Of a stretch of 64,000 bases of DNA, positions 1 through 18,504 are shown one piece after another (within the stretch, counting starts at the first letter, position 1; the number at the start of each line of letters is the position of its first letter). The notes below the pieces were generated by a model. That model was not told the DNA's origin. It saw nothing but the letters and a program-made list of their open reading frames with translations, and did not search any database. The translations under genes were made by a program, and so were the position numbers. The stretch is taken from assembly GCF_009931435.1 (NCBI RefSeq), contig NZ_CP043414.1, one strand, 5' to 3'. This DNA comes from Escherichia coli (lineage in GTDB: Bacteria > Pseudomonadota > Gammaproteobacteria > Enterobacterales > Enterobacteriaceae).

Positions 1-3000
1 GCTGCTCCCAAAACGAACCCGTGGCGCACTGGCAGTAGTGTTGAACGCCCAGAGGGGGTCTTTGAATACCTCCATTCCATGCGCCGTGTTTTTACATAAC
101 GTAATGGCAGCAGATGCACTCTCTCCACGTCGACCCGCGCGGCCTGCACGCTGCAAATAATTTGCCGGAGCTGGAGGAACGTTGTTCATTGCCACCAAAC
201 TCATACCACCAATGTCCACCCCCATCTCCATGGTCGTGGAGCAGTTCAGCACATTAACTTTGCCTGACTTAAATTGTTTTTCATTAAACTGGTTCTGCTC
301 AGGCGTTCTCTGCGCAGAGTGTTCCTCCAGACGATACCAGCTATCTTTCAGGGCCAGTCGGTCGCTGCGAGTAGACCATAATCCTTCCTCGCGGGCATGT
401 TGAATCAGCGCATTACTTTCCAGCCACTCCAGACGTTCTTCTCGGGCGATTTCTCCACCACCAGACAAACGCCAGTGACGTACAGGAAGCTCAGGCATTT
501 CAATCAACACTGCTTTTTCAGGTGCAATTTCTTTGCTACCCGGCAAATACGGAGAGTATCCCAGTAACGTGACGTCTAACGCACGTCGAGTATAGGGGCA
601 ACGCCACACTTGCTTTGGACTGTAAAATTCAGCTTGTTGTTTAATATCCAGCTGATAACCCGACTCAAACTGACGTAAGCAGGGTCGAATTGCATCCCAG
701 ACCTCAATCATTAAGTGGTTAACTAACGATTTCCAGTGAGCCTGCTCAGGTTGTATTGCCGGAAAGACTGCAATTAATAGCTTAATGACCCGGTTATAAT
801 GGCGATCGCGTATTTGTGGCCAAAGTTGATCACGTTTCTGCCCTTTGTTTTTTTTATCTGGACCCTGCAGCATTTTTACCGGGAAACGAGCCCCCATCCA
901 GCGAGGGTATTGCTCGTTTTCGTAAAAAACGGCACTGTTTTCACGTATAAAGAAATCAAGAGTAATCTTCAATAAATTACGCCATTCCGCTAATTGCTTA
1001 TCGGGATCGGGTAATAATGTCTTCCAGTCCTGCGGGCAGGTTGTAACTTTATCAATAAATGGATAGTGAATGGCTACCAGACCCAGACTTTCGAGGGTCC
1101 AGGCATTTTTAGGGCGGCGACCAAACTCACTGTATAAACAAAAATCTGCAAACTGTTGTTTAGTAAGATCAAGCCCAGACAATTCTTTAAAACTGCCTCT
1201 CATTCTATCGGCAAGGTCCACACTGCCAACCAGCTGTTCAGACAGTGTTTGCCATGACATGGTTTTCTTCTGCTGATTGCCAGAGTTAGCCTGGAGTATT
1301 TGCATCGCTTCAGCATGATCCGGGCTTAAGGAACTCACCATCGGCTCGATAATTTTAAGTGCCTGAATGTCCGCCGGGCTAAGCTCTTCATTAGCAACCA
1401 TCGCTTTTTTCAGCGCGTCAATAGAGTTTTTTAAAGGAAGGATAGAAAACTGGGCAATAAAACTCTCTAACAATGCGCAGTGTGCCGGGCTGAGCTTTGC
1501 TGATGGCTCATTAATATTGGCCAGCTCCTGGTAGCAAAGAGCTCGCAACGTCGCTTTATCGGCATCCTGCTGTAAGCGGGCAGAAATGCGGGCAGTGCCC
1601 TGACGTGAATCCGTAAAGGTGAGCAGACGTCGACCATTAAACGGTCCTAACTGCTCTTCTCTTGTCTGCGGTAATGGTGAAAACTCCAGCAGAGTAGGAA
1701 TAATTTCATTTAAAAAAAAGGGCGCGCCAAGTCGAAGCGGACGGAATAAAGGATTATTTTTTCGTTGGGTGTCACCACAGCAAACACAAGCAAAGGAATT
1801 ATTACGTCCCTCACCTCGAGATTCCGGTCTTAACAGGTTTATTTCATAGTGCTTTTGCGCTTCACTATCAATTTTCCCCGCCGTCGTTTCTTCCAGTGAA
1901 ATGATATATTTTTCACCATCGCTCGCAATCAGACGATCAAATTGAGAGTTATTGTCTAATTCGTCGTTGTCTTCATCTTCAGAATAAACATCTACATCAA
2001 GAGCAAACTCATCCACTTCGGCAGCGGCGGGTTGCGCTACCAACCAGTTCGTTCCATCACCGCGCATCTCCTCTTTGGCAGACAAATAAGCTGAACCACA
2101 CCCGGAGCAACGTAAAACTTCAAATACCGGCGCACCACAGTCACAATATTGGCGCTGCTCAAACCATACCTGACCAAATGGCCAGTCACTCTGATTTAAT
2201 TCATGTGCTTTATGTGAGCATTGTTTGTTTGAACATGCCCATAGACCCGCCAGTGTTCTGATAAATCCATGCATACGTAATGGCGTAAAAGCCAGTTCAC
2301 CTTCTCGCGATCTTGCCATTAGATCGAGGAGTTGCAGTAGCTCACGGTGATTAATATCTGGCCAGGTTCTTCTGGCAACATTGAGCAACTCACTCAAACG
2401 TACTGCCTGCCGTCCGGGATGAGTTAACGCCTGACGCAATTGCTGGGCCACACGGTAATGACAAAGCTGTTGGTAAAGATCCTGAGGGCTCAGAGATTTA
2501 AGAGAAGTTAAAGATGTGGGGTATTCATGACGAATCAGCGACTCCGATACCCGCGGTATTTGTCGATAACCGCGAACCACTTTGACATCACGTTCTGTAA
2601 CGCCCGCGAGATCAGCGACAAATTTAGCAAGCTCCTTATTACCTTCAGGAGAGTCTTCACCAATAGTGGCAGAGGTCGCGATAATCTGCACAGGTTTATC
2701 TGTGCCGGGTCCAACATTGAAAGCCTGCATAACACGACGTAAAAGCAGCGCTAACTCAGCAGCCTGAGAACCAATATAACTATGGGCTTCATCCAGGACG
2801 ATATACTTTAACATCCCCTGAGACTTTTCGATGATTGGGGCATCTTTACGACGAATCAGCATATATTCCAGCATGGTGGTATTCGTCACCATGATGGAAG
2901 GTGGTGCTTCGTAAATGGCTTCCCGACTCAAAGCTTGTTCAGGTACTTTCAACTGATCTTCCTGAATTTCGTATTTGGTATGCCGGGTTTCGCCATTATA

Positions 3001-3543
3001 TAGCGCGAAGCGTATTTTCCCCTTAAATCCGCGCGTCCATTCGCGAAGCCGCTCCTGTTGACTGTTAATTAATGCATTTAACGGATACAAGAAAATAGCT
3101 TGTGTCCCTGTTAGTGACTGGCGGGTCGATTTTTGCTGACGAATAAGATCTTCCAGAACCGGTACCATAAAGCATTCTGTTTTCCCGGATCCCGTACCGC
3201 TGCTCACTAACAAGGATTTTTTGTCTTCCAGAATTGTTCGCCACGCAGTGAGTTGATGACGAAATGGCACTGGCGCTTTGCTCAATGCATCAACCAGCGG
3301 GCTGGAGATCAGCTTGTCCCGCAAATCCTCCATTGTTTCATCCGCAGGCATCCAGCCGAATGTACTTTCGAATACCGGGTCTGCAAGCAGTGACCCCTCC
3401 TGACCGGGAGGCTGAAAATATTGTGATTCCAGATAATGAGTCAACGACTTGCTCCGCAATGCCAACTGACTTACCACCGACCTCACCGCACGCTGATGAA
3501 GCTGATTTAGAAGTGGCGCATAATGCAGTTGCTGAACGTCCAT
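1..3543 (-). CDS. Large superfamily-2 DEAH helicase, C-terminus runs off the window (at least 1181 codons visible); candidate Druantia DruE-like
   Basis: Minus-strand frame appears uninterrupted from ATG at 3541-3543 to position 1 (checked by hand at several points; not in ORF track because no stop in window). Walker A SSGTGSGKT near 3179-3205, DEAH box VLDEAH at 2782-2799, motif V MEMGVDIGG near 205-231, motif VI QRAGRAGRRGE near 121-153. Cys clusters (FACVCCGD, CSNKQCSH, CDCGAPVFEVLRCSGCG) lie between about 1770 and 2260. Confidence 0.75.
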   Translation of the reverse strand, partial: MDVQQLHYAPLLNQLHQRAVRSVVSQLALRSKSLTHYLESQYFQPPGQEGSLLADPVFESTFGWMPADETMEDLRDKLISSPLVDALSKAPVPFRHQLTAWRTILEDKKSLLVSSGTGSGKTECFMVPVLEDLIRQQKSTRQSLTGTQAIFLYPLNALINSQQERLREWTRGFKGKIRFALYNGETRHTKYEIQEDQLKVPEQALSREAIYEAPPSIMVTNTTMLEYMLIRRKDAPIIEKSQGMLKYIVLDEAHSYIGSQAAELALLLRRVMQAFNVGPGTDKPVQIIATSATIGEDSPEGNKELAKFVADLAGVTERDVKVVRGYRQIPRVSESLIRHEYPTSLTSLKSLSPQDLYQQLCHYRVAQQLRQALTHPGRQAVRLSELLNVARRTWPDINHRELLQLLDLMARSREGELAFTPLRMHGFIRTLAGLWACSNKQCSHKAHELNQSDWPFGQVWFEQRQYCDCGAPVFEVLRCSGCGSAYLSAKEEMRGDGTNWLVAQPAAAEVDEFALDVDVYSEDEDNDELDNNSQFDRLIASDGEKYIISLEETTAGKIDSEAQKHYEINLLRPESRGEGRNNSFACVCCGDTQRKNNPLFRPLRLGAPFFLNEIIPTLLEFSPLPQTREEQLGPFNGRRLLTFTDSRQGTARISARLQQDADKATLRALCYQELANINEPSAKLSPAHCALLESFIAQFSILPLKNSIDALKKAMVANEELSPADIQALKIIEPMVSSLSPDHAEAMQILQANSGNQQKKTMSWQTLSEQLVGSVDLADRMRGSFKELSGLDLTKQQFADFCLYSEFGRRPKNAWTLESLGLVAIHYPFIDKVTTCPQDWKTLLPDPDKQLAEWRNLLKITLDFFIRENSAVFYENEQYPRWMGARFPVKMLQGPDKKNKGQKRDQLWPQIRDRHYNRVIKLLIAVFPAIQPEQAHWKSLVNHLMIEVWDAIRPCLRQFESGYQLDIKQQAEFYSPKQVWRCPYTRRALDVTLLGYSPYLPGSKEIAPEKAVLIEMPELPVRHWRLSGGGEIAREERLEWLESNALIQHAREEGLWSTRSDRLALKDSWYRLEEHSAQRTPEQNQFNEKQFKSGKVNVLNCSTTMEMGVDIGGMSLVAMNNVPPAPANYLQRAGRAGRRGESASAAITLCKNTAHGMEVFKDPLWAFNTTASAPRVRFGSS

Positions 3544-6500
3544 CAATGACATACTCCTGCTTGTTCAAAATAATATTGATAGATTACCCCTAATTGCTGT
3601 GGGGCTTGCTGATAGTGAAATTCAAAAAGCGCAGACAGTTGATGTATCAGGTTATTATCTTTTTGGGTTAACAGCGCTGCGACTAACATCAAATTAAAAC
3701 GTTTTTCAAGCCGTGAGTGATATTTATCTTCAATCCAAAGCTTATTAAAAACAGATTTTAACTCTGGAGTAATAGCACTAGACCAAAGTTCTTTAGGGAA
3801 GATACTGATACGCCCAAAGCTGTCGGGGTTCCTTAATAGCATCTGTTTAGCTTCATTAAACTGCTCACGACTAACAGTTGGCAATACATCACAACCGGTT
3901 GGTAGGCTCTCACTATATGTAAGTAACATATTCGCAATGGGAGCCAGCCGACGATCGATATGTGCACGATGGTTCATAAAAGCAATAAAGGGTTGCAATA
4001 TATGTAATGCTAATGTTTTATCGTTAATCTGTTTTTCCAGATAAGTCCAACATTTTTGGAAAACATCTTTCCAGATTGAAACGGGAATCCATCCCCATGA
4101 AAAGGGTAATTCTTCCTGTATATCATAAATCGTATCGCTATCACCAGAAAGACATGATGATATTAACAATTGAACAACCACGCGGTAATTACTCGAAATA
4201 CCTCTGAACAAGTCCAGATCCAGCAAGGATAAGCCATTATTCATTTTGTACTTCTTAATATACTCTGTTAATAAACAGCAATAATTTTGCAATGGGTTGT
4301 TATCTATTTCAAAAATTAGCTCATTAAAATTTTTTTTGCGCTGTTCTGGGTCTGCTTCGCATAGAGCATTTAGTAATAAATCATTTGTCTGCAATACAGG
4401 TAGCATCCATTTAATTACTGGTGCAATGCGAGCTGTACCATCAAGTTTTCCCACAATTAACCATGGACTATCCTGAACATTCAGAGCTGAAAGATCATAA
4501 GCAAATTCATCTTTTTTTAGCAATGATTTGTGTAAGCCAGGATCCTTAAGAGAAATAGCATCAACAACCAGTTCGTCTATTCTATTTGCAGGAAAAACAA
4601 CAGAATTTTTTATATCAACCAGCAACCCTTGATCGTGTTCAATAAAACTACCATCGTAGCGTTTAATATTGAGTGTTGCTTTATCCTTTCCAAATCTGTC
4701 AGAGTAAAAATCAACACATAATGTACTATTGCTGTTCCATGCACATGCCAGCATAGCATTTAGCAAATTATAGTTCTCATAAAGTGAAATTTGTTGTAAT
4801 TTGTCATTGCGTCCTGATAAAAGAGGAAGGTCGGCATGTAAATAACGGAATTTTTCAGCTACTGGATTTTCATCCAATAACTCGATATTAAGATATCCTC
4901 TTCCAGCACATGATATGGTTAATAACTCAGCATCTATTCCATGCAAATGTGCTATAGATGCCACACCATCAAAATGAACAGAACCATCATTAGTTACAAA
5001 TCGGCCACCGCTAACCGGCTTAGGTAATAATAGTTTAAGATTAGAACCATCTTTCCAGGAGACCCGTAAATCAACGGTATTTTCCAGCATCTGCGATGAA
5101 TTATAATAAATAGCACACTCGTTTTGTGAATAATCGGACTTAAGTGTTACTTTTTCATTGTTTGAATATTTATCAATTCTAGTATCCGTTATACCAGAAA
5201 GCATAATAATGCCTTGCTGAGCACTCTCAGGTATAATATTAATATCGAAGTCTGCTGGTAAAACTACAACTTTACCGCTAAATAAAACCTCATCATTAAC
5301 TATTCGCCGGACTTCTATCTGTCCTTTTGGCATTTCTGATGCGACAGAATACCAGGCATTGTTACCTGAACGAATGGAACGCCAAAAAAGTTCTTTCTCC
5401 GGTACAATGCCATATTGCAGATCCTTTTTCCAACCGATCTTCGGCCAGGCTCGATGGACAGGATAATCCGATTTAACCAGTTCAACTTCTGTCGATTTAA
5501 TATAATATTCAATCGCAGAATCATAAAGTTGCTGGGTGCGAATTGTACAAACAGCACCATCATGTAAAACAACGCTAAATACTCCACTTATTTTAGTTAA
5601 GCTGCGTTCACTGTTTTTCAGCAACCTTGGGATATCAAACTCACCTTCTCCACTAATATCTAAATGGCTATTTTTCGGTAGCGAAATAAACAGAGCATTT
5701 AGCCTGGAACTCACAGACCCCATACCGACAAGTTTTAGCTGCGATTCACTCTCATTCATCGCTTCAAAAACCCAGGGGAGTTCTTCAGTAAGTTCATAAC
5801 CGCCTTTTGGAATTGTGTGGCCTAACAGAATTGGACCTTCATGAAGCGACAACGAGATTTCGGCCATTGCATCTGCACCAGAGAGCTTTTGCATCGCAAT
5901 AGGTAATAACTCGACCCGCCAATCTTGCTGCTCATAACGGCTTAGCATTGCCAACCTTGCCCCGCCATTTCTCCATTTTCCTGAAATGATGAGTCGGGTC
6001 TGCTCCGGCTGAATATGGCATTCAAACAAAGAGGTTAACTGTTCTGTACGCATTGTGGCCGGGAATCGGAACCGGGCATCACAATACCAACTGTCATCAA
6101 CATCGACCCAGATTCTTTCAACCTGAAGACTACTTGCACTGCGTATTTCAGAAGATTGAGAAAGTAATCGCCTTACAATCTCTGCAGCATTCGCTTCGGG
6201 GAGAACGAGTGGAAGTTGAAGATGCCAGTCTGGAGAGAGCTTACGTAATGCAGAAACGGGATCACTGCTTTGAGGTGGATGCTCACTAAGTAATCGGCAG
6301 AGAGTCTCGCAGAATTCACCGGCTATTTCATAGACCAGTTCGTTTTGCATTGTGACAGGAATCGTATCGCCTAATTCTTGTGCAATTTTAGCGGCAGGAT
6401 ATTGAGATGCTTGCCCACGAAGCGCCTGATATATCCTTCTGAAATAGGTAATCAAATAACCGCTCTCATTTTCAATCATGCGGATAGGTAAACCACCTTC

Positions 6501-6902
6501 ACAAGCCAGTGTATGCAGATAACCCGAAGCTTGCCCCAGGTTTCTTATCTTTCTTTTCCAGTAGCGAATGCCATCATTAACCAGCTTCTGTCGATGAACA
6601 TACGGAACTTTCCAGTCAATAGAATCTAAAATTGTGTCCCATTTAGGGTGTCCGACCGTATGAGTCCGGCGGATAAACTCTGCGGCATATATGCTAAATA
6701 GAACATCGCTATAGGAAATGAATATCGTTCTTGGATAACTACGAGGGGCATATGTACGCAGTAGTTCTGCCAAACTTTCGTACTCTGTATCAGTACAACG
6801 GTAAGCATATAACGCCCGTCCATCAGCTCCGGATAATGAACGGCGACTAAAAAACATGTTAAGCCATTGCAAAAGTGGGTTAACTGGAGTTTTCACAAGC
6901 AA
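3543..6902 (-). CDS. Hypothetical 1119-aa protein, no recognisable motifs; upstream partner of the helicase (candidate DruH-like)
   Basis: Single long ORF in track; AT-rich; its TGA stop overlaps the helicase ATG (ATGA at 3541-3545), implying translational coupling. Confidence 0.6.
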   Translation of the reverse strand: MLVKTPVNPLLQWLNMFFSRRSLSGADGRALYAYRCTDTEYESLAELLRTYAPRSYPRTIFISYSDVLFSIYAAEFIRRTHTVGHPKWDTILDSIDWKVPYVHRQKLVNDGIRYWKRKIRNLGQASGYLHTLACEGGLPIRMIENESGYLITYFRRIYQALRGQASQYPAAKIAQELGDTIPVTMQNELVYEIAGEFCETLCRLLSEHPPQSSDPVSALRKLSPDWHLQLPLVLPEANAAEIVRRLLSQSSEIRSASSLQVERIWVDVDDSWYCDARFRFPATMRTEQLTSLFECHIQPEQTRLIISGKWRNGGARLAMLSRYEQQDWRVELLPIAMQKLSGADAMAEISLSLHEGPILLGHTIPKGGYELTEELPWVFEAMNESESQLKLVGMGSVSSRLNALFISLPKNSHLDISGEGEFDIPRLLKNSERSLTKISGVFSVVLHDGAVCTIRTQQLYDSAIEYYIKSTEVELVKSDYPVHRAWPKIGWKKDLQYGIVPEKELFWRSIRSGNNAWYSVASEMPKGQIEVRRIVNDEVLFSGKVVVLPADFDINIIPESAQQGIIMLSGITDTRIDKYSNNEKVTLKSDYSQNECAIYYNSSQMLENTVDLRVSWKDGSNLKLLLPKPVSGGRFVTNDGSVHFDGVASIAHLHGIDAELLTISCAGRGYLNIELLDENPVAEKFRYLHADLPLLSGRNDKLQQISLYENYNLLNAMLACAWNSNSTLCVDFYSDRFGKDKATLNIKRYDGSFIEHDQGLLVDIKNSVVFPANRIDELVVDAISLKDPGLHKSLLKKDEFAYDLSALNVQDSPWLIVGKLDGTARIAPVIKWMLPVLQTNDLLLNALCEADPEQRKKNFNELIFEIDNNPLQNYCCLLTEYIKKYKMNNGLSLLDLDLFRGISSNYRVVVQLLISSCLSGDSDTIYDIQEELPFSWGWIPVSIWKDVFQKCWTYLEKQINDKTLALHILQPFIAFMNHRAHIDRRLAPIANMLLTYSESLPTGCDVLPTVSREQFNEAKQMLLRNPDSFGRISIFPKELWSSAITPELKSVFNKLWIEDKYHSRLEKRFNLMLVAALLTQKDNNLIHQLSALFEFHYQQAPQQLGVIYQYYFEQAGVCH

Positions 6903-7113
6903 CCTGCCTTCCTTTGATACAATTCGTAACAGGTTACTATCATCATAAAAAAGCTCAACCCGATGAACTCGCTAAAAATGAGACAAATCATTTATATCTC
7001 GAAAAAACTTGTTACAATCATGAGCGCTACACCGAACTTAACCATATAAATTATGTGCGTTTTGTTTATTTTTTAAACAATTACAACTATCCATTATTTA
7101 CACAGGTATCAAA

Positions 7114-8766
7114 ATGTTAGCGCAGCTTTTTGAGCAGTTGTTTCAATCGATAGACTCTACACTGATCACCAATATTTTCATCTGGGCTGTTATATTCGTA
7201 TTTTTATCAGCGTGGTGGTGTGACAAAAAAAATATACATAGTAAGTTTAGAGAATATGCTCCAACCTTAATGGGGGCATTAGGTATTCTGGGTACTTTCA
7301 TTGGTATTATTATTGGGTTACTCAATTTTAATACTGAAAGTATTGATACCAGCATCCCCGTATTATTAGGCGGCCTAAAAACAGCATTCATTACAAGCAT
7401 TGTAGGTATGTTTTTTGCCATTTTATTTAATGGAATGGATGCTTTCTTTTTTGCCAATAAACGAAGTGCGTTAGCAGAAAATAACCCTGAATCTGTTACA
7501 CCTGAACATATCTATCATGAATTAAAAGAGCAGAACCAGACTCTGACTAAATTAGTCTTGGGTATTAACGGTGATAGTGAAGGTTCTCTTATTGCTCAAA
7601 TAAAATTACTACGTACTGAGATTAGCGATTCCTCGCAGGCACAATTAGCTAATCACACTCATTTCAGTAATAAGCTTTGGGAACAACTTGAACAATTTGC
7701 AGATCTAATGGCAAAAGGTGCTACAGAACAAATTATTGATGCTTTACGACAAGTCATTATTGATTTTAATGAAAATTTAACTGAACAGTTTGGTGAAAAC
7801 TTTAAAGCACTTGATGCCTCTGTAAAAAAACTTGTTGAGTGGCAGGAAAATTATAAAACGCAAGTTGAGCTGATGTCAGAACAATATCAACAAAGTGTCG
7901 AGTCTCTGGTTGAAACAAAAACTGCGGTTGCCGGGATTTGGGAAGAATGTAAAGAAATTCCTCTGGCTATGTCTGAACTGCGTGAAGTGCTTCAGGTGAA
8001 CCAACATCAAATCAGCGAACTCTCCCGCCATTTAGAAACCTTTGTCGCTATCCGCGATAAAGCTACAACCGTATTACCTGAAATACAGAACAAAATGGCT
8101 GAAGTGGGTGAACTGCTGAAATCCGGAGCTGCAAATGTTAGTGCATCTCTTGAGCAAACCAGCCAGCAAATACTTCTTAATGCAGATTCAATGCGCGTGG
8201 CCCTGGATGAAGGTACCGAAGGATTCAGACAATCGGTTACCCAAACACAACAAGCATTTGCCTCGATGGCACATGATGTCAGCAATTCCTCCGAAACTCT
8301 AACCAGCACGTTAGGTGAAACAATTACTGAAATGAAACAAAGTGGTGAAGAATTCCTGAAGTCACTAGAGTCGCACTCGAAAGAATTGCATAGAAATATG
8401 GAACAAAATACGACTAATGTAATTGATATGTTCAGTAAGACTGGTGAAAAGATTAACCATCAACTATCCAGTAATGCCGATAATATGTTTGATTCAATCC
8501 AGACATCATTTGATAAGGCAAGTGCAGGGCTGACTTCTCAAGTCAGAGAATCAATTGAAAAATTTGCTCTATCCATCAACGAGCAGTTACATGCTTTTGA
8601 GCAAGCAACTGAACGTGAGATGAACCGTGAAATGCAATCATTAGGTAATGCTCTGCTTTCAATCAGCAAAGGTTTTGTCGGTAACTATGAAAAACTTATT
8701 AAAGATTACCAAATAATTATGGGACAGTTACAAGCATTAATTTCTGCTAATAAACATCGAGGGTAA
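7114..8766 (+). CDS. zorA: MotA/ExbB/TolQ-like membrane protein with long coiled-coil tail; ZorA-like (Zorya)
   Basis: Three N-terminal hydrophobic helices (LITNIFIWAVIFVFLSAWW, LMGALGILGTFIGIIIGLL, IPVLLGGLKTAFITSIVGMFFAILF) followed by about 440 aa of Q/E/L-rich heptad-like sequence; first gene of a three-gene operon. Confidence 0.65.
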   Translation: MLAQLFEQLFQSIDSTLITNIFIWAVIFVFLSAWWCDKKNIHSKFREYAPTLMGALGILGTFIGIIIGLLNFNTESIDTSIPVLLGGLKTAFITSIVGMFFAILFNGMDAFFFANKRSALAENNPESVTPEHIYHELKEQNQTLTKLVLGINGDSEGSLIAQIKLLRTEISDSSQAQLANHTHFSNKLWEQLEQFADLMAKGATEQIIDALRQVIIDFNENLTEQFGENFKALDASVKKLVEWQENYKTQVELMSEQYQQSVESLVETKTAVAGIWEECKEIPLAMSELREVLQVNQHQISELSRHLETFVAIRDKATTVLPEIQNKMAEVGELLKSGAANVSASLEQTSQQILLNADSMRVALDEGTEGFRQSVTQTQQAFASMAHDVSNSSETLTSTLGETITEMKQSGEEFLKSLESHSKELHRNMEQNTTNVIDMFSKTGEKINHQLSSNADNMFDSIQTSFDKASAGLTSQVRESIEKFALSINEQLHAFEQATEREMNREMQSLGNALLSISKGFVGNYEKLIKDYQIIMGQLQALISANKHRG

Positions 8767-8772
8767 TCGATC

Positions 8773-9480
8773 ATGGATAAGATTATAGGGAAACAATTAC
8801 CTAAAAAAGATCAAGATAATGAACACTGGGTATCCATGTCAGACCTAATGGCAGGGCTGATGATGGTTTTTATGTTCATATCTATTGCTTATATGCACTA
8901 CGTACGTATTGAAAAAGAAAAAATTAAAGAAGTTGCCGTAGCCTACGAGAATGCTCAGTTACAGCTTTATAATGCTCTGGATATTGAGTTTGCAAAGGAT
9001 TTACAAGACTGGGATGCAGAGATCGATAAACAGACTCTGGAGGTTCGATTTAAATCACCGGATGTTTTATTTGGCTTAGGAAGCACAGAGCTAAAACCAA
9101 AGTTTAAACTCATTCTTGACGACTTCTTTCCTCGCTACCTAAAAGTTCTAGATAATTATCAGGACCATATTACTGAAGTCCGCATTGAAGGTCACACAAG
9201 TACTGACTGGACAGGAACAACGAATCCTGATATTGCTTATTTTAATAATATGGCACTATCACAAGGTCGTACACGTGCAGTATTACAATACGTTTATGAC
9301 ATAAAAAATATCGCGACACACCAACAATGGGTTAAAAGTAAATTTGCCGCAGTAGGTTATTCATCTGCACATCCCATTCTTGATAAAACCGGCAAGGAGG
9401 ATCCTAATCGCTCTCGTCGTGTCACCTTCAAAGTTGTAACAAATGCCGAATTGCAGATTAGAAAGATTATTCAGGAGTAA
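8773..9480 (+). CDS. zorB: MotB/OmpA-like peptidoglycan-anchoring protein; ZorB-like
   Basis: N-terminal TM segment (LMAGLMMVFMFISIAYM) and C-terminal OmpA/MotB-like region (NMALSQGRTRAVLQYV, NRSRRVTF); starts 6 nt after zorA stop. Confidence 0.65.
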   Translation: MDKIIGKQLPKKDQDNEHWVSMSDLMAGLMMVFMFISIAYMHYVRIEKEKIKEVAVAYENAQLQLYNALDIEFAKDLQDWDAEIDKQTLEVRFKSPDVLFGLGSTELKPKFKLILDDFFPRYLKVLDNYQDHITEVRIEGHTSTDWTGTTNPDIAYFNNMALSQGRTRAVLQYVYDIKNIATHQQWVKSKFAAVGYSSAHPILDKTGKEDPNRSRRVTFKVVTNAELQIRKIIQE

Positions 9481-9483
9481 GAG

Positions 9484-10587
9484 ATGAAATTATCTATCGA
9501 CATTTCAGAACTTATTCAATTAGGGAAGAAAATGTTACCAGAAGGAGTCGATTTTTTTCTGGATGAATCCCCTATTGACTTTGATCCTATAGATATTGAG
9601 TTATCCACGGGTAAAGAAGTTAGTATCGAAGATCTTGACCCTGGTAGCGGGCTTATCTCTTATCATGGCCGCCAGGTTCTTTTATATATTCGGGACCATT
9701 CAGGGCGTTATGATGCGGCTATCGTAGATGGCGAAAAAGGAAAACGTTTTCATATTGCCTGGTGCAGAACTCTTGATGAAATGCGCCATAAAAATCGATT
9801 TGAAAGGTATCATGCAACTAACCGCATAGATGGTTTATTCGAAATTGATGATGGTTCAGGTCGGAGCCAGGATGTTGATTTACGGGTATGTATGAATTGC
9901 CTCGAACGACTTAATTATAAAGGAAGTATTGATAAACAACGAAAAAGAGAGATTTTTAAATCATTCTCATTAAATGAGTTTTTTTCAGATTATAGTACCT
10001 GTTTTCGTCATATGCCTAAGGGTATCTATGACAAAACAAATAGTGGGTATGTCGAAAACTGGAAAGATATATCTAAATCAATACGAGAAAAGGCAAATTA
10101 TGTTTGTAATGATTGTGGCGTGAATTTATCAACCGCCAAAAACTTGTGCCATGTCCATCATAAAAATGGCATCAAATATGATAATCACCATGAAAACCTT
10201 CTTGTTCTGTGCAAGGATTGCCATCGAAAACAGCCCCTCCACGAAGGTATATTCGTTACCCAAGCTGAGATGGCTATCATTCAACGTTTACGTTCCCAAC
10301 AAGGGTTATTAAAAGCAGAATCCTGGAATGAAATATATGACCTGACTGATCCATCAGTGCATGGTGATATTAATATGATGCAACATAAAGGCTTTCAACC
10401 TCCTGTTCCTGGGTTAGATCTTCAAAACTCAGAACATGAAATTATTGCAACCGTAGAAGCTGCATGGCCAGGCCTTAAAATTGCAGTTAACCTTACTCCC
10501 GCCGAAGTCGAAGGATGGAGAATATATACCGTGGGTGAGCTGGTTAAAGAAATACAAACAGGAGCCTTTACGTCAGCAACGTTGTAA
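9484..10587 (+). CDS. zorE: HNH endonuclease-domain protein; ZorE-like (Zorya type II effector)
   Basis: C-terminal HNH signature CNDCGVNLSTAKNLCHVHHKNG...NHHENLLVLCKDCH; starts 3 nt after zorB stop. Confidence 0.6.
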   Translation: MKLSIDISELIQLGKKMLPEGVDFFLDESPIDFDPIDIELSTGKEVSIEDLDPGSGLISYHGRQVLLYIRDHSGRYDAAIVDGEKGKRFHIAWCRTLDEMRHKNRFERYHATNRIDGLFEIDDGSGRSQDVDLRVCMNCLERLNYKGSIDKQRKREIFKSFSLNEFFSDYSTCFRHMPKGIYDKTNSGYVENWKDISKSIREKANYVCNDCGVNLSTAKNLCHVHHKNGIKYDNHHENLLVLCKDCHRKQPLHEGIFVTQAEMAIIQRLRSQQGLLKAESWNEIYDLTDPSVHGDINMMQHKGFQPPVPGLDLQNSEHEIIATVEAAWPGLKIAVNLTPAEVEGWRIYTVGELVKEIQTGAFTSATL

Positions 10588-10597
10588 ATTCCGAAAC

Positions 10598-10623
10598 TCC
10601 GTGAAAGTTAAGACTTTCACGGA
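10598..10623 (+). other. 11-bp stem hairpin just after zorE stop (terminator-like, no U-tract)
   Basis: tccgtgaaagt-taag-actttcacgga. Confidence 0.35.
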
Positions 10624-10796
10624 AGATAAATAAAATTCTCCTGATTTGTGACTCAAATTATAAAAGTCGTTTATGGCATAACTTGTCTGTTTTTTTGGTG
10701 TAATAGGTATAAAGGCATATGCTATGGTTAGCCTTATATTTAAAACTTTCCTCATACGGGTGAAGGTTAAAGCTTGGTAGATAGGTTACAGTCACA

Positions 10797-11406
10797 ATGA
10801 ATAAAGCAATAACGGTGCTTGCTATAATGATGGCTTCATTTTCCGTAAATGCGTATGTATTACCGGAAACGCCTGTGCCATTTAAAAGTGGTACCGGAGC
10901 AATTGATAACAACACTGTCTACATTGGTTTAGGTAGCGCAGGTACGGCATGGTACAAGCTGGAGAAACAGACCAAAGATAAAAAAATGGACAGCGTTAGC
11001 TGCATTTCCTGGTGGACCGAGAGATCAAGCAACTTCTGCATTTATTGATGGCAATCTGTATGTGTTTGACGGCATTGGCAAAAACAGTGAGGGCTTGACT
11101 CAGGTATTTAATGACGTTCACAAATACAACCTCAAAACCAATAGCTGGGTTAAATTGATGTCGCACGCGCCGATGGGCATGGCGGGTCATGTGACATTTG
11201 TACACAACGGCAAGGCTTATGTTACTGGCGGTGTTAACCAGAATATCTTCAATGGCTATTTTGAAGATCTTAACGAAGCTGGAAAAGATTCAGCGTACCG
11301 GTCACCGGAGAACTGGATGACGGTACTGCGAAGCAGTCATTTCAGTCGGGGGATGATTGTAGACAAATTTGTTGACGCTATTTTGCGGTTTTGGCGTGAA
11401 GGGTGA
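10797..11406 (+). pseudogene. nanM: N-acetylneuraminate epimerase (nanM/yjhT) N-terminal fragment, frameshifted and truncated
   Basis: ORFs 10797-11048 and 11062-11406 together carry the NanM signal peptide and first Kelch-like repeats (MNKAITVLAIMMASFSVNAYVLPETPVPFKSGTGAIDNNTVYIGLGSAGTAWYKL; FDGIGKNSEGLTQVFNDVHKYNLKTNSWVKLMSHAPMGMAGHVTFVHNGKAYVTGGVNQNIFNGYFEDLNEAGKD) but are split by a frameshift and end far short of the full-length protein. Confidence 0.6.
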
Positions 11407-11413
11407 GCGTTCA

Positions 11414-12064
11414 TTAATTTGATTTATTTGCATCCATCAACGCTTTTAACTGCTCCGGCGAAAACGGTGGTTTGCGTCGGTGCAACATCGCATGGCAATT
11501 AGGGCACACAGGAAGCAAATCATTAACTGGATCCAGCTGGTAATTCTCTTTAATGGCTGAAAGCGGCACCAGGTGATGCACATGGATAAAGCCTTCAGCG
11601 ATATCACCATAGATCTTCACCAGATCAACGCCGCATACGTTGCACTGGCATCCATGATGTTCGACCGCTTTATCTCGGGCCTTTTTATCGCGTTCATAGC
11701 GGTTTACTGTCACCTTTATCGCCGCACCTTCAACGTATGTCTCCTGCGACGGCAACTCATCCGGGAACAGAACGTCGGCTATGGGAGCCGCAGCGGCTTT
11801 ATCCTGATGAATATGAAATCCCTGCTCTATGAGTAGTTTGACGCATTTAGATTTTATTCCGCCGGTGAAATCCGCAGGGGTAAATTGCGTCCCCGTCATC
11901 AATGTCGCTGCGATGCCAGCAATCGCCTTCGAGGGGTAACGTCGGCCATGATATTCAATCTCATACAACCGCGCAGGCTGGAACTGATGAGTTTCTCCCG
12001 CATCCCATAAATGGATAGCTTCGATGATATACCGCCGCGGAAGATGATCAGGGAGTTTATTCAT
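11414..12064 (-). CDS. HNH endonuclease with about 140-aa N-terminal domain of unknown function
   Basis: C-terminal HHGCQCNVCG...HVHHLVPLS...NDLLPVCPNCHAMLH (zinc-finger HNH); N-terminal region has no motif I recognise. Confidence 0.7.
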   Translation of the reverse strand: MNKLPDHLPRRYIIEAIHLWDAGETHQFQPARLYEIEYHGRRYPSKAIAGIAATLMTGTQFTPADFTGGIKSKCVKLLIEQGFHIHQDKAAAAPIADVLFPDELPSQETYVEGAAIKVTVNRYERDKKARDKAVEHHGCQCNVCGVDLVKIYGDIAEGFIHVHHLVPLSAIKENYQLDPVNDLLPVCPNCHAMLHRRKPPFSPEQLKALMDANKSN

Positions 12065-12143
12065 GGAGAATGTCCTTATACGTTCTCAGAACAGGCAGCA
12101 AAAAAACAAATGAGATCAAGGTAATATATCTTCACTTGCAGGC

Positions 12144-13073
12144 TTGAACAGCAGAAAATTTGCGAGCATGATCGCAATTATTTCACTGCCAGGGATATCA
12201 ATGGCTTCCAGTAAATCGCTACAGCAGGCAATTGCCAATATAAAAATCTGGCACAAGGGTGAACAGCGCGCGCCGCATAAGCCATTGTTATTGCTATACG
12301 TATTAGCGGGATACCTGAATGGACATCCGCGCCTTTTCGATTATGGCTCGGAAATCTACGAACCTCTGCACAGTTTACTGGAACGTTTTGGGCCACAGCG
12401 TTCACAGTACCGACCTGATATGCCGTTCTGGCGATTACAAGGCGACGGATTCTGGCAATTACACAATGCCGAACTTTGCTCAACAGCAGGGAGTAGCCGA
12501 CAACCGCCAGTGAAGGAACTGACCGAACACCGCGTTGCAGGCGGTTTCGATGAACAGCACTATGCCCTGGTAATCGGCAATAAAAAACTCATCAATACCC
12601 TGGCGCAACAGATACTCGAAGCGCACTTCACCGAGAGCATTCAGGAAGAAATTGCTGACGAGCTGGGTTTTGATCTCCAGCAAATCCGTAAACAGCGCGA
12701 CCCGTTATTTCGCAAACTTGTATTGCGCGCATATAACTACCAGTGCGCGATATGTGGCTTTAATATGCGCCACGATGACACCACCGTCGCACTGGAAGCA
12801 GCGCATATAAAATGGAAACAGCACGGCGGTCCTTGTGAAATTCCTAATGGCCTGGCGCTTTGTGCAATACACCATAAAGCCTTTGATAAAGGATCGATTG
12901 GCCTGGATGAAAATATGCGGGTACTGGTCTCGGATGCGGTAAACGGCGGAGGGATCGTTGAGAAACTATTCTGGGATTTTGACGGGAAAACTATTGCGTT
13001 ACCACAGGTGCGTAAAAATTACCCTTTTGAGGGGTTTGTGGAGTGGCATCGAAAAGAGGTTTTTAGGGGGTGA
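12144..13073 (+). CDS. HNH endonuclease with about 190-aa N-terminal domain of unknown function (start may be a downstream Met, e.g. 12201)
   Basis: HNH signature CAICGF...AAHIKWKQHGGP...NGLALCAIHHKAFDKG; divergent from the 216-aa HNH gene across a 79-bp spacer. Confidence 0.7.
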   Translation: MNSRKFASMIAIISLPGISMASSKSLQQAIANIKIWHKGEQRAPHKPLLLLYVLAGYLNGHPRLFDYGSEIYEPLHSLLERFGPQRSQYRPDMPFWRLQGDGFWQLHNAELCSTAGSSRQPPVKELTEHRVAGGFDEQHYALVIGNKKLINTLAQQILEAHFTESIQEEIADELGFDLQQIRKQRDPLFRKLVLRAYNYQCAICGFNMRHDDTTVALEAAHIKWKQHGGPCEIPNGLALCAIHHKAFDKGSIGLDENMRVLVSDAVNGGGIVEKLFWDFDGKTIALPQVRKNYPFEGFVEWHRKEVFRG

Positions 13074-13114
13074 GGTTGATAACTATCGCAGTATGTTCAA
13101 TATTGCTGACATAA

Positions 13115-13297
13115 TCAGTGCAGGATCTTGCCGCTAGTTTACAACTCGCCTTCGATAGCGGCGCAAAACGAGTTCTGTTGCCGATATCCTCGGCTATGGA
13201 TATTCCAACAGTTCCGGCAGAGTTGTTTACCAAGTTTCAGGTAAGTTTTTACTCAGAACCGGTTGATGCGGTTTATAAGGCGCTGGATGTGAATTAA
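13115..13297 (+). pseudogene. C-terminal remnant of a Lon-like protease gene (possibly BrxL-like), no start codon
   Basis: Open frame with no Met translates to SVQDLAASLQLAFDSGAKRVLLPISSAMDIPTVPAELFTKFQVSFYSEPVDAVYKALDVN, resembling the extreme C-terminus of Lon-family proteases (compare Lon AAHRGGIKTVLIPFENKRDLEEIP...). Confidence 0.4.
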
Positions 13298-13695: not shown

Positions 13696-15744
13696 CTAAT
13701 CATTTCCCTTACGAATATATGGGCCAAAAGCCCAAGAATCATAATAAGGGTGATGGACTAATTTTTCATTAAATCGAACACTATAAGTTAATTTTTTTAT
13801 ATTTTTACGTACAGCATTAATACTGGGCAAAGAGGAAAGATAATCTATAAACTTATCGATAGTGATTTTCCCTTCGCAACACTCAAACCCATCAATGATA
13901 TTTTTCGCCATTTTTCCATTTTCATTTGTTTGATATATCACTCCAGGTATTCGTTGAAAAAAACTAGATAATGCATATTTGTCCGCTACATATGTATCAT
14001 CCACATGATATTTCCCACCGAGCATAGTTGTAGTAACAATAAGCTTATACACACCTTTGGGTTGCCATGTTGATGGTAGTTCGAATTCTTTAATGATCAC
14101 ATCAAGATGATTAAGATAATGTTCAGAAATTCGATTTATTTGTTGAAAATAAGAACGCATAAATTTATTATTATGATCATGTATTAATGAGCTATCTCCA
14201 ACGATGTTACACACTTGCTGATAGTACTTACCATAATATATTGGTTGACCATTTGATTTTAGTTCTGTAAAAATCAAACAATCATCCAGGAGAATCACGC
14301 AATCGCACTGATAATTAGCATGAGCATCAATTGGAGAAGCTTTAATCCCCGCATCACGAACTTGTTTTATAAATTGTTGCTCATGAAATCGCCCTTTACT
14401 TGCTTGAGAAATTTTTTTGGAACCAAATAATGACATTAGAGAGCGAGTCACTGAGCTATTTGCTATTAATGCAGGCATTAAGCATAAACCGTCCATACAG
14501 GGAATAAATGGGCAATCATTAAGATCATGTGATTTTGAATTGAAGGTAAAATAATCTATCAGTTTTTTTGCTGCATCTGCTGCAATCCCCTTACGTTGAA
14601 AGAATGATAACCAACTCTCACGGCTTTTTATGACCAGCCAGCGATCCAACTGTAGGGGTATAGGTTTTGTCGATGAAAATCTTTTGCTCATTTCTTCTTT
14701 AGATAACTCGACTAAACATTGATAAGCGTGCACCCAATTAAATAATGATATATTCCCATATTCTTCATGAAGGTCATCAGGAGACATATTTTCCAACTCG
14801 CTTAAATGAAATGAGCTAAAAACGCCATCAGAATTTAAGTAAGATGGCATATGATCCTTTACCCAACTATTTAGATGAAAATGTTTGTTACTAAATTCAT
14901 GAACTTCGCTATATAGATGTGACGCTCTCATCATTAGTCTATTTCTTGCAATCTCATAATCTCGGTATAAACAAAAACTATCAACCTCAAGAGAGTAAAT
15001 GTTATTATCCAATTTTGTAAATACTGCACTACTTAGTCTGAAAAAGTCTCTTACTCTGCTTAATGAGTCAAAAACATTCCACTCATTAAGGTACCCTCCC
15101 ATTGAAAGCAAGGTTTGTTTATTCACACAAGAAGTTAGTTTCAATGGCCCATGAGTCCGTAAATAAGAAAATATTCTTCCGGTGTAATTGGCTACCTCAT
15201 CAAATGCCCTATCGATAACTCGAAAATATTCGATATCAGGTTCAGCATGAATATTAATATTTTCAGAAACGATAAATAATGGAAAAATCCTCTTCATTTT
15301 TTTAGGATCATTGACCACAACCAAGGATGATAATGATGATAAAAACATCTCACAAAACATGATGAGATTAAGTATTAATGCATGTGATTTTTTTGTATTT
15401 TTACGCCAAATACCAGCACATTTTGCAGCCCCAAAGAAAGAATTATTTATATCATGCATAATTTTACATTGACTCTCGAACTCAGAGATTAGTTCAATGT
15501 TATCAGGAAATGAGTTTACTAGCTCATTAATACATTTTTTGAATGTATTGTTATACTCAACTTCAGTCTGAACTGAAAATCTATTATAATAGATGGAAGA
15601 TATTCTCAGCACATCCAAGGCGATATCTATACTAATATCATCTCTTTTTATGTACTCACAAAAAAAAGAACAAAACTGTTTCGGGTCGTTAGCAAGATTA
15701 CTAATTCTAGTGGTATCATAAACTTTTTCCATTTTTCCATACAT
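13696..15744 (-). CDS. Hypothetical 682-aa protein, very AT-rich, no confident domain assignment
   Basis: Single long ORF flanked by more than 600 bp of AT-rich non-coding DNA on each side; possible PD-(D/E)xK-like motif CDCVILLDDCLIFTELK in the C-terminal third (weak). Confidence 0.6.
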   Translation of the reverse strand: MYGKMEKVYDTTRISNLANDPKQFCSFFCEYIKRDDISIDIALDVLRISSIYYNRFSVQTEVEYNNTFKKCINELVNSFPDNIELISEFESQCKIMHDINNSFFGAAKCAGIWRKNTKKSHALILNLIMFCEMFLSSLSSLVVVNDPKKMKRIFPLFIVSENINIHAEPDIEYFRVIDRAFDEVANYTGRIFSYLRTHGPLKLTSCVNKQTLLSMGGYLNEWNVFDSLSRVRDFFRLSSAVFTKLDNNIYSLEVDSFCLYRDYEIARNRLMMRASHLYSEVHEFSNKHFHLNSWVKDHMPSYLNSDGVFSSFHLSELENMSPDDLHEEYGNISLFNWVHAYQCLVELSKEEMSKRFSSTKPIPLQLDRWLVIKSRESWLSFFQRKGIAADAAKKLIDYFTFNSKSHDLNDCPFIPCMDGLCLMPALIANSSVTRSLMSLFGSKKISQASKGRFHEQQFIKQVRDAGIKASPIDAHANYQCDCVILLDDCLIFTELKSNGQPIYYGKYYQQVCNIVGDSSLIHDHNNKFMRSYFQQINRISEHYLNHLDVIIKEFELPSTWQPKGVYKLIVTTTMLGGKYHVDDTYVADKYALSSFFQRIPGVIYQTNENGKMAKNIIDGFECCEGKITIDKFIDYLSSLPSINAVRKNIKKLTYSVRFNEKLVHHPYYDSWAFGPYIRKGND

Positions 15745-16421: not shown

Positions 16422-16506
16422 TGGTGCCGAAGGCCGGACTCGAACCGGCACGTATTTCTACGGTTGATTTTGAATCAACTGCGTCTACCGATTTCGCCAC
16501 TTCGGC
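16422..16506 (-). tRNA. leuX: tRNA-Leu (anticodon CAA), leuX
   Basis: Minus-strand sequence GCCGAAGTGGCGAAATCGGTAGACGCAGTTGATTCAAAATCAACCGTAGAAATACGTGCCGGTTCGAGTCCGGCCTTCGGCACCA, with T-loop GGTTCGAGTCC and 3' CCA; matches recalled leuX. Confidence 0.9.
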
Positions 16507-18288: not shown

Positions 18289-18504
18289 TTAAAATCTCCT
18301 GAATCATCTTACCTGCGGCGATACTACGCCTGGCGGCATAATAATTTCACGTTTTTTTATTTCTGTTGATAAGAATTACAAGGCACATCACGTTATGCGT
18401 AACATAGTAATGTAACAATTTTCTGACGTGATCTTCATCACAAATAATGACAATTAAAACCGCTTAAATGCTTCCGAGGTGTCTACCTGACCAGTGAGGA
18501 ATTT

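Follow-up and report, generated by a model that had tools for sequence, protein, structure and literature searches.

The 211-bp spacer between druH and zorA2 in the leuX island of Escherichia coli is an ordinary divergent promoter region of a known kind. It is best explained as a compact two-way control region, in which two predicted sigma-70-type promoters would stand back to back within an 88-bp core (6931-7018), and we put the probability of this reading at roughly 55%. The conserved −10 elements, at 6931-6936 on the minus strand and 7013-7018 on the plus strand, are 76 bp apart, and the predicted start sites are separated by about 101 bp. Between the promoters lies a dyad of the form ATGA-N6-TCAT, a candidate binding site for a regulator. 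The head-to-head layout of the two operons and the synergy of the defence systems that they encode have already been published; the anatomy of the promoters and of the dyad appears to be new. All positions refer to the window, that is, the whole 64-kb stretch of DNA that was analysed.

Two defence operons on either side of an AT-rich spacer

The spacer and the genes that flank it are as follows.

1 to 3543, minus strand: druE, its N-terminal 1181 codons, running off the left end of the window (PADLOC DruE3, 1360 bits)
3543 to 6902, minus strand: druH of Druantia III (PADLOC DruH3; NCBIfam YjiT_fam; named 'STY4851/ECs_5259 family' by PGAP)
6903 to 7113, no strand: intergenic spacer between druH (minus) and zorA2 (plus), 211 bp, 31.8% GC
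7114 to 8766, plus strand: zorA2 of type II Zorya (PADLOC ZorA2, 999 bits)
8773 to 9480, plus strand: zorB2 (PADLOC ZorB2, 347 bits)
9484 to 10587, plus strand: zorE, the HNH nickase effector (PADLOC ZorE2, 586 bits)

The open reading frames of druH, with a TTG start, and of zorA2, with an ATG start, bound 6903-7113 exactly, and both starts are identical in the RefSeq PGAP annotation of a 99.1%-identical genome. An earlier note on this DNA had described a 211-bp AT-rich divergent spacer at 6903-7113, and the coordinates, the AT-richness and the opposite strands of the neighbouring genes were all confirmed. It had also spoken of two divergent defence operons, a 'helicase operon' and a 'Zorya-like' one. 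The divergence holds, and the labels are replaced by those that PADLOC and NCBIfam assign, which are Druantia III for the former and a true Zorya II for the latter.

On the minus strand, the druH product matches the PADLOC DruH3 profile over its full length with 2551 bits and the NCBIfam profile with 988 bits. It is followed in the same operon by the large helicase gene druE, with which druH overlaps by one base, and this order of DruH and then a large DruE helicase is that of Druantia type III. PGAP names druE a 'motility-regulating DEAH-box RNA helicase' (Z5898), and its full length is 2104 aa in the 99.1%-identical genome. On the plus strand, a MotA-like ZorA2, an OmpA/MotB-like ZorB2 and an HNH ZorE are encoded in one co-directional operon with gaps of 6 and 3 nt between the genes, which is the composition of type II Zorya, and two NCBIfam equivalogs reach 1138 and 694 bits where their cut-offs are 700 and 600. 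The island adjoins the tRNA-Leu(CAA) gene leuX at 16422-16506, and 449 complete E. coli genomes match at least 80% of 3000-13200.

The position of the druH start bears on the length of the spacer. The annotated TTG at 6902 is TTG, ATG or CTG depending on the lineage, and the GTG at 6896, which is preceded by a well-spaced Shine-Dalgarno sequence, is kept in every intact druH-linked lineage and is GTT in the Pantoea remnant. The PADLOC DruH3 profile match begins at residue 3. Translation may start at this GTG, two codons inside the annotated TTG, in which case the spacer would measure 217 bp.

The GC content of the spacer compares with 48.0% in the window, 39.8% in druH and 38.1% in zorABE, and its sequence contains A-tracts. 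Equally AT-rich 211-bp windows make up 4% of the 64-kb window and 9% of the island, whose GC content is 32-40%; the core genes between 23 and 31 kb and between 43 and 62 kb of the window have about 50-55%. The AT-richness of the spacer is real but typical for the intergenic promoter region of an AT-rich island. A consensus scan of 6700-7300 listed 5 promoter-like sites, compared with 2.1 ± 1.3 in shuffled sequences, and a scan for terminator-like sites in the same interval returned none.

The same locus is present in other strains, namely as the OI-172 zorABE/druHE junction of EDL933 (z5894-z5898) and in ATCC 8739 and ECOR19. A 2025 preprint on EDL933 describes O-island 172 as carrying zorABE (z5894-z5896), druHE and armABCD and calls zorABE and druHE 'divergently transcribed'. 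Only 2 of 211 spacer positions, 7058 and 7079, distinguish EDL933 and ATCC 8739 from the window; both lie in the unconserved zorA leader and outside the predicted elements, so that experiments in these strains apply to the sequence analysed here. In EDL933, chromosomal deletion of zorABE or druHE alters phage sensitivity in ordinary LB assays, and Druantia III defence is weaker natively than with heterologous expression. 'Native promoter' constructs from ATCC 8739 protect K-12 hosts, as reported in separate papers for Zorya II and for Druantia III; the extent of the 'native promoter' fragment is unstated, and the Druantia construct sits downstream of a vector T7 promoter. In a Sakai microarray, the signal of ECs5259 (druH) drops about 4-fold as the cells enter stationary phase.

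Among the E. coli instances of Zorya II, 2151 of 2518 occur with Druantia III. Both the non-random co-localisation of the two systems and their synergy are documented, and the synergy has been dissected mechanistically in studies that drive the systems from pBAD or lac promoters; rhamnose promoters, too, are used in the literature on the systems. Start sites, promoter elements and regulator sites in the spacer are not mapped in the available literature on both systems. Z5894-Z5899 are not listed in the supplements of an EDL933 transcriptome covering 11 conditions, and the locus has no entry among the start sites listed from EDL933 Cappable-seq (PMC10469882).

Predicted promoters and their conservation across genera

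Because the junction is near-invariant in E. coli, with at least 99% identity across the spacer in 512 genomes, we gathered relatives from other genera via homologues of ZorA2 and DruH and compared about ten enterobacterial lineages. The head-to-head arrangement of druH and zorA2 was also found in Yersinia proxima, in an Enterobacter/Hafnia lineage, in Lelliottia and in Pectobacterium, with a gap of 216-222 bp as measured from the conserved GTG, and it holds even though DruH falls to 63% identity. The region upstream of a more distant DruH (48% identical) was too short and could not be aligned. Most of the spacer has diverged to near-randomness across the lineages compared; what is conserved comprises the predicted promoter elements, the dyad and the ribosome-binding sites of both genes. 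The elements discussed below are located as follows.

6903 to 6915, minus strand: AAAGGAAGGCAGG, the ribosome-binding region of druH, read from the sequence
6914 to 6943, plus strand: promoter-like pair TTGATA-18-TATCAT
6915 to 6923, plus strand: TGATACAAT, a second copy of the extended −10, overlapping the druH leader and P_druH
6931 to 6958, minus strand: predicted P_druH, with −35 TTGAGC (6958 to 6953), a 16-nt spacer and −10 TAACCT (6936 to 6931)
6978 to 6991, no strand: dyad ATGA-N6-TCAT, candidate transcription-factor site, centred at 6984.5
6991 to 6996, plus strand: weak −35-like hexamer TTTATA for P_zorA, with a 16-nt spacer, from promoter scans
7009 to 7018, plus strand: predicted extended −10 of P_zorA, TTG-T-TACAAT, with TG at 7010-7011 and the hexamer at 7013-7018
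7019 to 7100, plus strand: predicted 5′ leader of zorA, poorly conserved
7103 to 7106, plus strand: CAGG, the Shine-Dalgarno core of zorA2, 7 nt before the ATG and invariant in 9 of 9 lineages

On the zorA side, TGTTACAAT at 7010-7018 has the make-up of a sigma-70 extended −10, with TGn in front of a TATAAT-like hexamer that carries A at its second and T at its sixth position. Every position of TTGnTACAAT except the 'n' is kept in 8-9 of the 9 aligned lineages, and the extended −10 is conserved in at least ten lineages; it is identical in Serratia nevei and takes the form TGGTATTTT in Rahnella, whose ZorA2 is 59% identical. A PWM scan placed P_zorA at the same aligned position in all lineages scanned but Pantoea and Kosakonia, and these two carry the element as well (TGCTACACT and TGATACAAT), outside their four best PWM hits. 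The start site of zorA is predicted at about 7024-7026, which would give a leader of about 90 nt.

Identity in the leader (7019-7100) amounts to only 29-52% between lineage groups in the alignment. A structured RNA, riboswitch or sRNA in this segment was considered and rejected, since the spacer has no Rfam match at E ≤ 1, the fold of the leader is not significant (z = −1.74) and the leader is unconserved. Small open reading frames of 28-68 aa in the spacer were likewise rejected, since they lie in a segment that shows no conservation.

On the druH side, the top minus-strand PWM hit in E. coli is P_druH, which is also found at the same aligned position in Yersinia. Seen on the plus strand, GCTCAA (6953-6958) and TTAC (6934-6937) are conserved, and on the minus strand they read TTGAGC-N16-TAAT(G/C)T, the −10 being TAATGT or TAATCT in lineages other than E. 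coli. All five intact druH-linked lineages have TTGAGC and the 16-nt spacing, and the sequence of the spacer between the hexamers varies. The −35, the spacing and the −10 are thus conserved while the sequence between them changes, as would be expected for a real promoter. Transcription from P_druH is predicted to begin at about 6924, which would give druH a leader of 22-28 nt. The promoter would be a weak one: its −10 matches 3 of 6 consensus positions, and the −35 elements of both P_druH and P_zorA are weak. A weak P_druH is consistent with the reported weakness of native Druantia III defence in EDL933.

The two predicted promoters do not share elements. Bidirectional promoters of the kind associated with Warman et al. 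2021 reportedly have shared or overlapping −10s, with starts about 18 bp apart. The spacer resembles them in being AT-rich and in carrying promoter-like hexamers on both strands. A bidirectional promoter with a shared −10 was rejected, however, because the −10 and −35 sets are separate and both the −10s (76 bp) and the predicted starts lie far apart.

A conserved dyad between the predicted promoters

Within the dyad, TGA (6979-6981) and TCAT (6988-6991) are the same in all nine aligned lineages, whereas the N6 and the flanks vary, and the dyad is also present in Rahnella. Measured from the predicted start sites, its centre falls at about −40.5 for zorA and about −60.5 for druH. The spacings are fixed in most lineages, with 20 nt separating the −35 of druH from the dyad and 19 nt separating the dyad from the TG of the extended −10; the latter distance is 17 nt in Pantoea and 20 nt in Rahnella, and the former is invariant although the sequence between the elements varies. 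The composite pattern of dyad and extended −10 occurs once in the 64-kb window, compared with 0.05 occurrences expected. The right half of the dyad (TCATTTAT) overlaps the −35 region of P_zorA, and part of the conservation of this half may be intrinsic to the promoter. In Serratia nevei, the extended −10 is kept and the left half of the dyad is missing.

The DNA upstream of zorA2 differs among the lineages. It holds a divergent type I hsdR in Kosakonia, hipBA in Serratia fonticola, hsdM in S. nevei and a tautomerase gene in Rahnella, and one E. coli variant combines zorA2 with remnants of a T6SS and with unrelated upstream DNA. In Kosakonia, S. fonticola and Rahnella, zorA2 is still preceded by both the dyad and the extended −10. 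An IS903-like element, flanked by a 9-bp target duplication, has inserted in Serratia sp. PL17 precisely in the interval that separates P_druH from the dyad, which agrees with the proposed boundary between the druH and zorA modules. Among 80 Zorya II loci, the combination of dyad and extended −10 is absent outside the enterobacterial clade, and isolated TGA-N6-TCA sequences occur in distant Zorya II loci at about chance frequency, except in a related pair of Vibrio loci.

The consensus sites of CRP and FNR are TGTGA-N6-TCACA and TTGAT-N4-ATCAA, respectively. Such activators act from class II positions near −41.5, often together with an extended −10 as in galP1, or from class I positions near −61.5 as in lac, and malX-malI is a divergent pair with one CRP-type site. 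With the predicted starts, the spacer is like CRP-type divergent pairs in having back-to-back promoters around one TGA-N6-TCA dyad, whose centre would lie close to the class II position for zorA and to the class I position for druH. It is unlike CRP sites (GTGA/TCAC) and FNR sites (TTGA/TCAA) in its half-sites, which are ATGA/TCAT.

We scored the dyad with an approximate CRP PWM built from known sites; three of these performed poorly in leave-one-out, so that the matrix is rough. By this approximate matrix the dyad reaches 7.2 bits in E. coli, compared with a median of 11.6 bits for known sites; this score lies in the top 0.1% of window positions, and the orthologues range from −0.3 to 11 bits. 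The top match of the same approximate matrix in the window is at 18424 (15.1 bits), in the idnK-idnD spacer, which presumably contains a CRP site. Inspection of the alignment gave 7-8 of 10 matches to the FNR consensus, and the base that separates CRP (G) from FNR (T) is not conserved. By these comparisons the likeness of the dyad to CRP and FNR sites appears weak and limited to the TGA-N6-TCA core. We regard the dyad as a candidate regulator-binding site, with a chance somewhat short of even.

Proposed two-way control and competing explanations

Under the two-way control reading, P_zorA would be composed of the extended −10 TGTTACAAT and the weak −35 TTTATA, starting near 7025 with an unconserved leader of about 90 nt, and P_druH would be composed of the weak TTGAGC-16-TAACCT, with its start near 6924 and about 25 nt of leader. 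Both operons would be transcribed from the 88-bp core at a low to moderate basal level. A global regulator encoded by the host would probably bind the dyad and adjust the expression of zorA and possibly of druH too, and H-NS probably coats the whole AT-rich island, dampening expression without silencing it. Shared control of both operons via the dyad is plausible but rather unlikely, and so is its most specific form, in which one host global regulator would co-activate both operons through the dyad, as a class II activator on zorA and a class I activator on druH. The earlier suggestion of shared or coordinated promoters can be followed only in part: the footprint and the native-promoter plasmids support the presence of both promoters inside the spacer, and coordination is only suggested by the dyad at its fixed distance.

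A rival reading has two independent constitutive promoters without a shared regulator. The dyad would then be conserved for reasons intrinsic to the promoter, for instance because its right half belongs to the −35/UP region of zorA, and the layout would persist through the co-travel of both systems on one mobile island. Extended −10 promoters can be activator-independent, and the extended −10 could free P_zorA from an activator. The overlap of TCATTTAT with the −35 hexamer, the PL17 insertion that parts druH from the dyad, the missing left half-site in S. nevei, the weak and inconsistent CRP score of the dyad and the fact that neither island encodes a regulator all point the same way. This account, which we consider possible but on the unlikely side, has difficulty with the left TGA, found 10 bp upstream of the −35 and unchanged in all nine lineages and in Rahnella while its neighbours vary, and with the distance of 20 nt between the dyad and the druH −35, which is fixed despite variable sequence. 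The promoters could also lie elsewhere in the spacer, with zorA transcribed from the druH-adjacent plus-strand elements and druH from the minus-strand site TTTAAA-16-CATAAT (7077 to 7050), so that the transcription units cross and interfere. The pair TTGATA-18-TATCAT is the best consensus match of the region (10/12, 9.5 bits); it ranks first by PWM score in E. coli, Enterobacter and Hafnia and is also among the hits in Lelliottia and Pectobacterium. The 64-kb window contains just two copies of TGNTACAAT, both in the spacer and 95 bp apart, and the two 10-mers are identical in the Enterobacter lineage. From TGATACAAT or TTGATA-18-TATCAT, the zorA leader would be 160-185 nt long. A further minus-strand candidate was found at 7120 to 7093, and because there are several promoter-like sequences in the AT-rich spacer, the true start sites could differ from those predicted. 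We nevertheless consider such crossed units improbable. Yersinia and Pantoea lack the druH-adjacent elements and Pectobacterium has them in degraded form, for which reason we rank them as secondary; 7027-7100 is unconserved; and the Zorya II loci of S. fonticola, Rahnella and S. nevei keep only the proximal element. Competition with P_druH is conceivable, since the druH-adjacent elements overlap both this promoter and the druH leader.

The earlier note had also pointed to H-NS-type silencing, and a stronger version of this idea is that the spacer is mainly an H-NS nucleation site and that both operons are silent until counter-silenced. The low GC content and the A-tracts of the spacer, the contrast in GC between island and core genes, the excess of promoter-like sites over shuffled sequences, which is typical of AT-rich acquired DNA, and the weaker native than plasmid-borne Druantia III defence of EDL933 are in its favour. 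As an AT-rich acquired island at leuX with an excess of promoter-like sites, the locus resembles H-NS-bound xenogeneic islands. It is unlike H-NS-silenced islands in that both systems are functional in their native host EDL933, where deletion of zorABE or druHE changes phage sensitivity in LB. In addition, ECs5259 gives a regulated microarray signal in Sakai, native-promoter plasmids function in K-12, which has H-NS, and the AT-richness is a property of the island as a whole. The activity of both systems, natively in EDL933 and from native-promoter plasmids, contradicts complete silencing, and we give the nucleation-site idea a low probability. H-NS binding is a reasonable, generic expectation for the whole AT-rich island and not one specific to the spacer; a literature search that included the supplements of PMC4720273 returned no H-NS data for ECs5256-5261. 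Hardly credible, finally, is a promoterless spacer with both operons transcribed by read-through from distant promoters. The upstream DNA on the same strand is the antisense strand of the other operon, over 3.5 kb for druH and over more than 6.9 kb within the window for zorA, the spacer contains conserved promoter footprints, and cloned operons with native upstream DNA are functional.

Returning to the back-to-back promoters predicted in the 88-bp core, their positions and the conserved dyad at fixed spacing between them offer a concrete starting point for examining co-regulation of Zorya II and Druantia III, and the same anatomy bears on the stability of the junction and on what 'native' cloning should include. 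If co-activation through the dyad is true, the fixed 88-bp core would owe its persistence across genera to the co-regulation of two synergistic defence systems, and the joint expression of Zorya II and Druantia III would be tied to a physiological signal, for example cAMP or oxygen.

Spacers altered or lacking an intact druH

In Kosakonia (L087 4505-5001), the type I restriction gene hsdR takes the place of druHE and is divergent from zorA2. The hsdR-zorA2 gap measures ~495 bp. Homology persists over its zorA-proximal ~190 bp, to about window position 6926, and within this part the druH promoter survives in degraded form (TTAAAC-16-TAATCC). Because this zorA-proximal homology and the degraded promoter remain, the sequence suggests that druHE was replaced via recombination at the druH start. 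In Pantoea sp. GD03673 (L006), the alignment with the other lineages covers the spacer and ~45 bp at the 5′ end of druH, but a tblastn search for DruH and DruE in the 6 kb upstream of zorA2 had no hits; the druH stretch is probably a remnant.

The Zorya II variant of E. coli E300010 (L002 5717-6022), which occurs without Druantia, adjoins T6SS gene remnants. Its DNA identity of 92.6% refers to a matched segment comprising the first ~100 bp of zorA2 and ~20 bp upstream; ahead of the zorA2 ATG, the sequence is window-like over about these 20 bp only, and the variant has its own consensus extended -10, TGATATAAT.

The druH-zorA spacer of Serratia sp. PL17 is interrupted by an IS903-like element (L005 about 4793-5854, about 1.06 kb) with inverted repeats GGCTTTGTTGAATAA..., flanked by a 9-bp target duplication (CCTTCAAGA/CCTTCACGA). 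The insertion point falls precisely into the stretch that separates the dyad from the predicted druH promoter. Plasmid pCUPF09A (NZ_CP182143.1, 136 kb) carries a 71-bp fragment (L003 4001-4071) that is 97% identical to window 6889-6959, comprises the druH 5′ end with adjoining spacer, and is flanked by IS5 and IS110 remnants.

CRP- and FNR-like sites elsewhere

With the approximate CRP matrix, the top CRP-like site of the whole window (18424-18445, TGACGTGATCTTCATCACAAAT, 15.1 bits) was placed in the divergent idnK-idnD spacer. This spacer contains a CRP site, and the match is a check on whether the matrix is plausible. In the Zorya II loci of Vibrio jasicida and V. splendidus (L069 and L080), which are related and non-independent of each other, an FNR/CRP-like dyad (TGATCCAAATCA and TGATTTGAATCA) precedes zorA by about 113 bp, and its spacing to the likely -10 differs from that of the window's dyad.

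Other genes of the island and the name of DruE

The following features lie between zorE and leuX (window positions):

Within 10797-13073, downstream of zorE: frameshifted remnant of nanM (N-acetylneuraminate epimerase)
11414-12064, - strand: HNH endonuclease
12144-13073, + strand: phosphorothioated-DNA-binding restriction endonuclease
13696-15744, - strand: 682-aa ORF adjoining leuX (RefSeq: hypothetical)

The two endonuclease genes 3′ of zorE are further defence-type genes of the same island. GC content around the 682-aa ORF is 32-35%, and its product had no match in Pfam, PADLOC or NCBIfam.

RefSeq names the product of druE (window 1-3543) a 'motility-regulating DEAH-box RNA helicase', which was traced to a 2013 study of Z5898 (PMC3681947). 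In recent preprints, DruE is a defence effector, namely a DNA helicase-nuclease, and this product name is therefore likely misleading.

Zorya II with a co-directional DruE-like helicase

Among the 80 distant Zorya II loci, 12 have a gene for a large DruE-like (YprA-family) helicase immediately 3′ of zorE and in the same orientation:

L008, 9604-13635: example of a zorE-downstream DruE-like helicase
L017, L018, L020, L029, L037, L043, L047, L048, L052, L074, L078: other loci with this arrangement

The hosts include Pseudomonas, Aliidiomarina, Thalassolituus, Halomonas, Enterovibrio and Vibrio, among others. In these 12 loci, the helicases score 278-300 bits against PADLOC DruE3 and follow zorE without an intervening DruH. 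The linkage of Zorya II and DruE thus has a second, co-directional form.
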